A stretch of 4,254 nucleotides of DNA from a virus (taxonomy: Duplodnaviria; Heunggongvirae; Uroviricota; Caudoviricetes), in IMG/VR virus record IMGVR_UViG_2531839233_000010. One strand, written 5' to 3'. The notes beneath the pieces are model-generated. The model made no database searches and was not told the origin of the DNA. It saw only the letters and a list, made by a program, of their open reading frames with translations. Shown in pieces: positions 197-1,003 of this stretch. How positions within the stretch are numbered: position 1 is the stretch's first letter; each line of letters starts with the position of its first letter. Both the position numbers and the translations under genes were made by a program.

Positions 197-352
197 AAAA
201 TCAACCGCATGGTGAATCCTCCTTGGAGGGGCTAAATGATCGAGTTTTAAGGGCACGTAGCGAGTTCTGTTTGATCATTGCAGAACTTAGCGGGAGGCGC
301 CATGCGTACATCACTAATGTTATTTCCTTCTATCATTTTCCTTGTGAGTTCT

Positions 353-379
353 GGCTGCGCATGGCGCGGCCTTTTTTTT
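353..379 (+). terminator. Rho-independent terminator (tR'-like, end of late leader transcript)
   Basis: Stem GGCTGCGC (353-360) pairs with GCGCGGCC (364-371): 8 bp including one G-U, loop ATG, followed directly by eight T (372-379). Confidence 0.7.
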
Positions 380-560
380 ATGACCTGCCACTGGCAGATG
401 GTCATCCTGTGATTTGATTCCGGTTCCGGCTTTTTAACTCTGTTCCTGTACACGGGAGAAATTCTATGTCGATTAATCGTTATGATATTGGTTACAAGAA
501 GTACCACGTATTGTGTTGAGATAGAAAGCATGGTGCCAGAGGTAAATGCAGCAGCATAAT

Positions 561-608
561 AAAAAAGAGCCAGCGCAGAAGAGAACGGGTAAAAGAGTCT
601 GCGCTGGC
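561..608 (-). terminator. Candidate rho-independent terminator for minus-strand transcription
   Basis: Perfect 11-bp inverted repeat GCCAGCGCAGA (569-579) / TCTGCGCTGGC (598-608) with an 18-nt loop. On the minus strand the hairpin is followed by TCTTTTTTATTAT (complement of 556-568); no T-tract follows on the plus strand. Confidence 0.45.
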
Positions 609-659
609 GTGGGGATATTCCCCGTGGAGAAATGATATGTAACACACATCGGGAACCTT

Positions 660-687
660 TCTATATAAACATTATCATTATTGTCAA
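660..687 (-). promoter_or_regulatory. Candidate minus-strand promoter facing the 561-608 terminator
   Basis: Minus strand reads TTGACA (complement of 682-687, perfect -35), 16-bp spacer, TATAGA (complement of 660-665). The -10 lacks the conserved final T, so this is weak. It would give a roughly 90-nt transcript ending at the 561-608 terminator. Confidence 0.25.
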
Positions 688-787
688 TCATAACAGTCAG
701 GTATTATGACGTTTATGCATCAGGGCCATCAGGAATTAACTGGTGGCTTTTTATTGTTGTCAGCTTCCGGATAACGGGAGACGGGGT

Positions 788-1003
788 ATGTACCAGATGG
801 AAAAAATAACAACAGGTGTGTCATACACCACGTCAGCGGTGGGGACGGGATACTGGCTACTGCAGTTGCTGGACAAAGTCTCCCCATCCCAGTGGGTGGC
901 AATAGGCGTATTGGGTAGCTTGGTGTTTGGCTTGCTGACGTATCTGACAAACCTTTATTTCAAGATTAAAGAAGATAAGCGTAAGGCTGCGAGAGGTGAA
1001 TAA
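788..1003 (+). CDS. S: Class II holin, phage 21 S21 pinholin family (71 aa; alternative start at 797 gives 68 aa)
   Basis: ORF ending TAA 1001-1003. Translation [71 protein letters not shown] closely matches the phage 21 S21 pinholin as I recall it (two TMDs, ...[21 protein letters not shown]-terminus). GGGAG at 776-780 lies 7 nt before ATG 788. Met1 and Met4 form a dual-start motif. The 743 start in the ORF track is upstream of the SD and unlikely. Confidence 0.9.

Follow-up and report, generated by a model that had tools for sequence, protein, structure and literature searches.

Lambda OOP RNA, a short phage transcript, is a cis-antisense small RNA (sRNA): it covers part of cII, at the 3′ end, and its action depends on RNase III. 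AsxR and AgvB, convergent sRNAs at the 'moron' site of lambdoid prophages in enterohaemorrhagic Escherichia coli (EHEC), are abundant on Hfq and act by sponging FnrS and GcvB; they are 51-60 nucleotides (nt) long and have a conserved 42-nt 3′ region. Esr41 (EcOnc14), carried on the island SpLE1/OI-43/48 at 1.9 kb from iha, is Hfq-dependent and has iron-acquisition targets; chuA, cirA and bfr are validated targets that it represses. Here we analyse a 4,254-nt stretch of a Caudoviricetes virus (IMG/VR record IMGVR_UViG_2531839233_000010), hereafter the window, which is the late region of a lambdoid prophage. At about 653-560 its minus strand encodes an abundant Hfq-bound prophage sRNA that has already been catalogued as EcOnc32. 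Like OOP, EcOnc32 is a short RNA that has a promoter and a terminator to itself and runs antisense to a phage mRNA. It shares with AsxR and AgvB the convergent moron-site position and the abundance on Hfq, although it has no sequence match to either, and the role proposed for it below, as an Hfq-dependent regulator of iron acquisition, parallels that of Esr41.

Over window positions 200-800 the identity to Sp3, a prophage of E. coli O157:H7 Sakai (NC_002695.2, 901219-901819), is 100%, and so is that of 170-800 to prophage PP4 of enteropathogenic E. coli (EPEC) E2348/69. Since RNA-protein interaction data have been published for both strains, the prediction of an sRNA at this site could be checked on identical sequence. 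In Sakai, EcOnc32 was placed at 901574-901662 on the minus strand of Sp3 by Hfq cross-linking and analysis of cDNA (CRAC) (Tree 2014, Mol Cell, PMC4104026, Table S2). Its CRAC peak maps to window 555-643 if the 2014 coordinates are those of the current record, and under that assumption the neighbouring EcOnc13 lands sensibly on the terminator region of the RNA PasD1. EcOnc32 passed in 5/5 CRAC replicates, gave the second-highest signal of all 63 orphan sites, was flagged with a Rho-independent terminator and yielded a Northern band of ~112 nt (Tree 2014, PMC4104026). The locus and the sequence are the same in Sp3 and in the window, without any difference, so that this is one gene, previously catalogued only.

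The EPEC study assigned the reads to an open reading frame (ORF), E2348C_1013, and the RNA thus stayed unnamed (Pearl Mizrahi 2021, PMC8550237). Under that label it reaches a baseMean of 2064 in RNA-seq and drops 7.5-fold without Hfq (log2 fold change -2.91, adjusted p 1e-23), a comparison in which MgrR, FnrS, SdhX and PasA fall as well (PMC8550237). In RIL-seq, which ligates and sequences interacting RNAs, it is always RNA2, the sRNA side, with a fraction of 1.0 in both conditions, and has a U-tract of 6 nt (PMC8550237). The read ends extend down to 1060613, which is window 560 and the end of the U-run; the RIL-seq coordinate ranges are, according to their legend, ranges of read ends and not ligation junctions. 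In the activating condition ~808,000 of 18.2 million fragments, ~4%, involve this RNA, as against 147,000 for ArcZ, 129,000 for Spot 42 and 26,000 for RyhB among the rows listed (PMC8550237). On Hfq in EPEC it thus exceeds ArcZ, CyaR and Spot 42 among those rows. Only 4/8 of its partners were coding sequences or 5′ untranslated regions (UTRs), whereas the authors' rule was 67% (PMC8550237), and EcOnc32 was probably left out of the EPEC list of new sRNAs because it fell below that threshold.

The published tables therefore hold what is generally expected of an Hfq-dependent sRNA: Hfq binding, an Hfq-dependent level, a terminator with a U-tail and the RNA2 position. A preliminary description of the window, made from its letters alone, had proposed a discrete minus-strand sRNA here and named the absence of any such transcript as the outcome that would count against it. 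The CRAC peak, the Northern band and the EPEC reads to 560 show that an RNA of about 90-110 nt is made, and the signal in both strains contradicts that outcome. This is a rediscovery, and it illustrates that genuine sRNAs can be recognised from the grammar of promoters and terminators alone. The RNA was known by a catalogue number, without an Rfam family or an assigned target, and in thousands of genome records a hypothetical protein is annotated in its place; a literature search on the name EcOnc32 found no paper text.

Architecture of the EcOnc32 unit

The elements of the unit and of its promoter region are as follows.

560-653, minus strand: sRNA gene EcOnc32 (counted as E2348C_1013 in the EPEC data), 3′ end from RIL-seq read ends
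682-687, minus strand: -35 hexamer TTGACA of promoter P1, invariant in three sRNA alleles and the Esr41 promoter
660-665, minus strand: -10 hexamer TATAGA of P1 (TATAAA in allele B), 16-nt spacer
671-700, minus strand: alternative promoter P2, CTGACT-18-GATAAT, overlapping P1, from the consensus scan
664-682, minus strand: Fur-box-like sequence AATAATGATAATGTTTATA, 15/19 to the consensus GATAATGATAATCATTATC, over the promoter spacer
634-650, minus strand: 5′ hairpin GAUGUGU-GUU-ACAUAUC, from the fold
621-650, minus strand: predicted entC-pairing seed region (pairs with entC -18..+9), with core ACAUAUCAUUUCUCCAC and single-stranded AUUUCUCCAC at 633 to 624
611-623, minus strand: small hairpin GGGGA-AUA-UCCCC, with the counterpart GGGG-UAUU-CCCU in Esr41
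569-608, minus strand: intrinsic terminator with an 11-bp stem and the 18-nt loop CUCUUUUACCCGUUCUCU (597 to 580), from the fold
561-568, minus strand: U-run UCUUUUUU, Hfq-binding 3′ tail, with RIL-seq read ends stopping at 560

The unit is predictable from its promoter and terminator elements, which lie on the minus strand exactly where the preliminary description had put them: TTGACA, TATAGA at a 16-bp spacing, and the 11-bp hairpin with its U-run. The -35 hexamer (687 to 682) is the sole TTGACA in the whole window; about three would be expected per window by chance, so that alone it has no significance. TATAGA follows at 665 to 660. The inverted repeat is perfect (569-579/598-608) and is followed by UCUUUUUUAUUAU (568 to 556) on the minus strand and by GTGGGGATATT on the plus strand. 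These flanks bear out the further claim that the hairpin is terminator-like on the minus strand only. A consensus scan returned neither the TATAGA promoter, whose -10 has no final T, nor the terminator at 569-608, whose loop is longer than the 8-nt limit. No tRNA genes were found.

In the predicted fold of the 98-nt RNA (653 to 556), the 5′ hairpin is followed by the unpaired stretch AUUUCUCCAC, the GGGGA/UCCCC hairpin and the terminator. Its folding energy is -34.9 kcal/mol, compared with -15.5 +/- 2.6 for shuffled sequences (z -7.5), and none of 200 shuffles was as good.

Judged from the promoter position and from homology to the Esr41 start, transcription would begin at 650-653, with an alternative near 664. 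The predicted lengths are 91-94 nt from P1 and about 105 nt from P2, so that a P2 start near 664 suits the Northern band better, although the same authors' blots give a size for PasD1 that is about 8% too high. P1 is kept in all alleles and in Esr41. The P2 -10 reads TATAAT in allele C and is destroyed in allele B.

Kinship with Esr41

The full-length Esr41 model (RF02676, positions 1-74) aligns to 648 to 559 in cmscan at 32.3 bits (E 0.0022). The 5′ 49 nt of EcOnc32 share 36/52 alignment columns with Esr41 (69%), including CAUUU(U)CUCCA(C/U)GGGG; this domain scores 15, where shuffles average -9.4 and reach at most 3 (z 6.1). The minimum-free-energy folds of the two RNAs run through the same four elements: first a 5′ hairpin, next an unpaired CU-rich stretch, then a small G/C hairpin and finally the terminator with its U-tail. 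The pairs of the 5′ hairpin are kept through changes on both sides (GAUGCU-CUA-GGCAUC in Esr41, GAUGUGU/ACAUAUC in EcOnc32), and the distance from TTGACA to GATG is 31 nt in EcOnc32 and 29 nt in Esr41. The hairpins were compared directly and no covariation was drawn from the MAFFT and RNAalifold alignment, which misaligned Esr41 with the alleles.

There are also clear differences. The terminator of EcOnc32 has 11 bp and an 18-nt loop, that of Esr41 9 bp and a 5-nt loop, and EcOnc32 lies not on an island but between pR′/tR′ and a lambdoid holin gene. No chimeras with chuA, cirA or bfr were seen among the RIL-seq rows listed for EcOnc32. In the Rfam search at E <= 1 no family matched at its gathering score; asX2, SorX, osmY and the like were terminator look-alikes or noise. 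Given the different mobile element and a score below the RF02676 gathering score of 102 bits, EcOnc32 is, as judged from sequence and fold, a diverged paralogue of Esr41 and not a member of its family by the Rfam criterion.

Targets, iron and competing explanations

The partner with the most support is entC, which opens the enterobactin operon. EPEC RIL-seq recorded 263 chimeras between its 5′ UTR and EcOnc32, with all three libraries containing them (odds ratio 14, p 4e-165). Independently, in EHEC, RNase E cross-linking, ligation and sequencing of hybrids (CLASH; Waters et al. 2016) recovered a hybrid read, ECs0632-EcOnc32, whose ECs0632 part is the entC 5′ UTR through the AUG. EcOnc32 is thus physically associated with the entC 5′ region in vivo, on Hfq and on RNase E. 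A duplex between sRNA nt 4-33 (window 650-621) and entC -18..+9 is predicted at -27.6 kcal/mol (z -4.6), equalled by none of 1000 shuffles, and the target stretch GUGGAGGAUGAUAUG holds both the Shine-Dalgarno sequence and the AUG. Esr41 reaches only -17.4 kcal/mol on the same target, which suggests that specificity for entC is the EcOnc32 paralogue's own.

Besides entC, RIL-seq lists the rpoS start region (537 chimeras, odds ratio 2.8), dnaK and an nleB pseudogene, none of which pairs with the 5′ seed. Duplex prediction with the full-length sRNA was uninformative for the RIL-seq partners, being dominated by long-range loops with z near 0, and was repeated with the 5′ domain and the loop. The terminator loop CUCUUUUACCCGUUCUCU may be a second pairing site: its duplex with the rpoS ribosome-binding region has -19.7 kcal/mol and is equalled by 1.5% of shuffles, and its duplex with the dnaK AUG by 4.7%.

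We propose a model in which a sigma-70 promoter with a perfect -35 and an intrinsic terminator of its own would make EcOnc32 an independent transcription unit. Its 5′ domain, ACAUAUCAUUUCUCCAC with flanks, would pair across the Shine-Dalgarno sequence and AUG of entC. With the help of Hfq this would occlude the ribosome-binding site, block translation and recruit RNase E, leading to entC decay and less enterobactin, an iron-economy role parallel to that of Esr41. More speculatively, and as a lead only, the 18-nt terminator loop could serve the start regions of rpoS and dnaK. In the lysogen, pR′ transcripts would end at tR′ (353-371), so that the sRNA gene would be read unopposed; after induction, Q-modified polymerase would traverse it from the other side and probably silence it.

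RyhB, the core Fur-repressed iron sRNA, may be a functional analogue, as both are Hfq-bound sRNAs that act, or are proposed to act, on iron-acquisition mRNAs, and a Fur-box-like sequence lies over the EcOnc32 promoter; there is no sequence relation between them, and for EcOnc32 Fur control amounts to a consensus match. The 15/19 match was reached in 3/300 whole-window and 6/3000 local shuffles, and the divergent allele B keeps a 15/19 match there, shifted. An iron-responsive expression of EcOnc32 through this predicted Fur box is speculative.

Taken together, we consider it likely that EcOnc32 is a trans-acting, Hfq-dependent sRNA with its own sigma-70 promoter and terminator, a paralogue of Esr41 that lowers enterobactin synthesis via entC. 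Several observations weigh against this. The ~112-nt band is longer than the 91-94 nt predicted from P1, the 5′ end itself comes from prediction, and TATAGA is without the conserved final T. The Esr41 match stays far below the gathering score. Chimeras prove proximity and not a change in EntC protein or in enterobactin, and with so much EcOnc32 on Hfq some partners may be background, as the odds ratio of 2.8 for rpoS illustrates; the loop duplex with nleB does not exceed what shuffles give (12%). As for Fur, the box is a consensus match only, its significance is weakened by a second 15/19 match, GATAATTTTACTCATCATC, at 1969-1987 on the plus strand right after the Rz stop, and a Fur-derepressed sRNA that represses siderophore synthesis is counter-intuitive. 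A fuller account, in which a Fur-controlled Esr41 paralogue throttles enterobactin through the entC ribosome-binding site, uses its unusually large terminator loop as a second seed on the rpoS and dnaK start regions and belongs to a set of swappable seed cassettes (PasA, PasC, AsxR/AgvB, EcOnc32), is in our view doubtful as a whole.

The alternative that the preliminary description raised is an action in cis on the lysis genes. EcOnc32 would pair with the Q-antiterminated late transcript at 560-653 and tune holin and endolysin expression, and with it lysis timing, via RNase III or convergent interference. Complementarity is necessarily perfect, as the gene is embedded in the late leader, after tR′ and before the holin ATG at 788; convergent sRNA pairs occupy the moron site in many lambdoid prophages (Tree 2014, PMC4104026), which makes the position a conserved one, and a cis effect could coexist with a trans function. 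Yet the duplex would lie upstream of the holin gene, stopping 135 nt before its start codon and off its ribosome-binding site, and no late-leader chimeras are listed; every recorded partner is a host or effector mRNA encoded in trans. Expression is high even though the prophage is degraded in some strains, for example Sp3 in PV15-279, and the 5′ seed is the most conserved part of the RNA. Unrelated sRNA bodies (PasA, PasC, AsxR/AgvB, EcOnc32) also occupy a slot with conserved flanks, which argues that the cargo is selected for its seed rather than for the antisense relation. We regard cis-antisense control as unlikely, and the likeness to OOP needs no cis effect here. A sponge of the AgvB/AsxR type, titrating core sRNAs, would likewise fit the convergent position downstream of pR′ and the very high Hfq abundance. 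It is very improbable, however, since RF02702 and RF02703 reveal no AgvB or AsxR match at E <= 1, the length is ~95-110 nt and not 51-60 nt, and none of the eight interactions in the EPEC summary is with another sRNA, EcOnc32 always being RNA2.

To two further explanations we give hardly any weight. The transcript might be the 5′ part of an mRNA for a 132-aa protein (247-645, minus strand; ECs_0817 / E2348C_1013 / WP_012578864.1), an ORF annotated in hundreds of genomes with its GTG start at 645, just inside the transcript. The preliminary description, which rightly dismissed a 72-aa ORF at 473-691 on the minus strand (Pfam gives nothing above threshold), overlooked this longer ORF, annotated as a hypothetical protein by the NCBI pipeline, when it stated that no credible minus-strand protein gene lay between promoter and hairpin. 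But the ORF runs through the strong terminator while the RNA read ends stop at 560, it crosses the junction of an esterase-gene deletion at 490/491 and the antisense of tR′/PasD1, and it matches no Pfam family above threshold. In PP2 the corresponding ORF carries a frameshift and an internal stop, and no Shine-Dalgarno sequence precedes the GTG at 645. The RefSeq ORF is very probably an artefact of annotation that masks the sRNA and caused its booking as a coding sequence in RIL-seq. The RNA might, on the other hand, be a stable but functionless by-product of a fortuitous promoter and a leftover esterase terminator. The 3′ arm and U-run indeed fall within 491-575, a block that resembles, at ~81% identity, the 3′ end of the nanS-p esterase locus in other prophages, and the TTGACA count is not above chance. 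Against this, the 5′ domain is kept across alleles while promoter spacers and terminator tops have diverged, there is homology to the functional sRNA Esr41, and the entC chimera is specific and reproducible in two strains and by two methods.

While the existence of EcOnc32 was known, the Esr41 link, the entC duplex and the possible Fur box were not in the literature searched, and they make up a modest, testable functional hypothesis. If it is true, the reprogramming of siderophore synthesis by a prophage sRNA in EHEC and EPEC would extend the picture, drawn from Esr41 and AsxR, of phage control over the host's iron economy.

Alleles, the cassette site and neighbouring features

The segment 380-790 is 100% identical in 563 complete E. 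coli genomes, O157:H7, O26, O103, O111, O55:H7 and EPEC included, and the 156-nt sRNA region is present in 603/5426 genomes, nearly always as a single copy. The copies returned by a scan of one genome per species were all of the Esr41 type; they came from a single representative each of E. coli and Shigella flexneri, and none from outside Escherichia/Shigella. The phage collection holds the sRNA in a single record, Escherichia phage Evi, and IMG/VR has 71 viral contigs with it, in three alleles. Identity to the window allele differs by segment.

653-609, minus strand, 5′ domain: 42-44/45 across alleles
Promoter: 37-41/47
Terminator: 25-36/41

The identity being highest there, the 5′ seed domain is by this comparison the most constrained part of the sRNA. 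In allele C the upper stem and loop of the terminator are different. Stx2e/i-type prophages (L007, L008) have diverged copies, at 77-81% identity, in antisense orientation after stx2B and before the holin genes, and the L008 copy has a different 5′ end. AsxR has the equivalent position in Sp5.

Sp3 and seven other prophages have been described as carrying convergent sRNA pairs at their moron site, downstream of pR′ (Tree 2014, PMC4104026), and in E2348/69 the sRNAs PasA and PasC lie in PP2 and PP5, antisense to the late operon (Pearl Mizrahi 2021, PMC8550237; Zhu, Shabalina & Storz 2026 preprint). PasA and PasC occupy the same slot as EcOnc32 in the same antisense orientation, between a sialate-esterase 3′ end and a class II holin gene. 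Comparison with PP2 divides the window as follows.

380-490: like the DNA right after PasD2, 94%
490/491: junction at which the 1.75-kb sialate-esterase gene (nanS-p) of E2348/69 PP2 is absent from the window
491-575: 81% identical to the last ~85 bp of the esterase locus, with the 3′ arm and tail of the terminator included
576-793: nothing similar in PP2
794 onward: holin, 94%

The stretch 491-575 looks like a leftover of the 3′ end of a sialate O-acetylesterase gene (nanS-p/SASA), cleanly deleted relative to PP2. PasC shares the terminator base and tail GCCAGCG...CGCTGGCTTTTTTTATTATGCTGC with EcOnc32, and its alignment z of 4.4 is carried by this common 3′ end. The body of PasA is unrelated (global alignment z 1.6), and blastn of window 576-793 against the PasA locus found no similarity. 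This suggests, from sequence comparison, that the slot between esterase and holin is a site for swappable sRNA cassettes with a shared terminator module. After PasA in E2348/69 PP2 (L002 2365-2480, minus strand) there is a tandem promoter-terminator unit, TTGACA...GCCAGCG-loop-CGCTGGCTTTTTTT, which corresponds to the 'minor 236-nt' form of PasA and looks like a duplicated sRNA cassette.

The remaining features of the window, in order, are these.

8-166: DUF3927 ORF
Next: pR′-type promoter and short leader RNA, with the strong terminator tR′ at 353-371
788-1003: class II (S21-type) holin
1003-1500: endolysin with a signal-anchor N-terminus of signal-anchor-release (SAR) type
Beyond: Rz/Rz1, then small and large terminase genes

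After tR′ follow ~400 nt with no credible gene. The preliminary description had suggested a divergent, Q-independent holin promoter in this interval. Its hexamers exist (TTGTCA 681-686 / TATTAT 702-707), yet the 15-nt spacer is poor, a plus-strand terminator-like hairpin with a T-run lies at 722-750 before the holin gene, and the holin is nearly silent in EPEC RNA-seq, with a baseMean of 5 against 2064 for the antisense RNA (PMC8550237); the suggestion is not supported. That hairpin (722-755, plus strand), ~40 nt upstream of the holin ATG, consists of GCCAUCAG...CUGGUGGC with UUUUUAUUGUUGU after it. All three alleles keep it, the holins of PP2 and PP5 are preceded by an analogue, and it may be a second late terminator needing Q.

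The pR′ leader RNA at 177-382 on the plus strand (core 207-379) is PasD1 of EPEC and EcOnc13 of Sakai, convergent with EcOnc32. EcOnc13 (Sakai 901332-901382, plus strand) corresponds to window 313-363, the 3′ end of this leader, and the PasD1 region gives an STnc100-like Rfam match of 37.7 bits, below the gathering score of 47. By their sequences, the holin, endolysin and Rz/Rz1 genes form a lysis cassette of the phage-21 pinholin type. The holin starts with MYQMEK, whose two in-frame Met codons allow a possible dual start, and an Rz1-like lipoprotein ORF (1717-1923) lies inside Rz. Between Rz and the small-terminase gene, ~800 nt (1965-2778) carry no convincing gene, only a strong plus-strand terminator at 2138-2157 and weak Rfam noise; this segment presumably holds cos.

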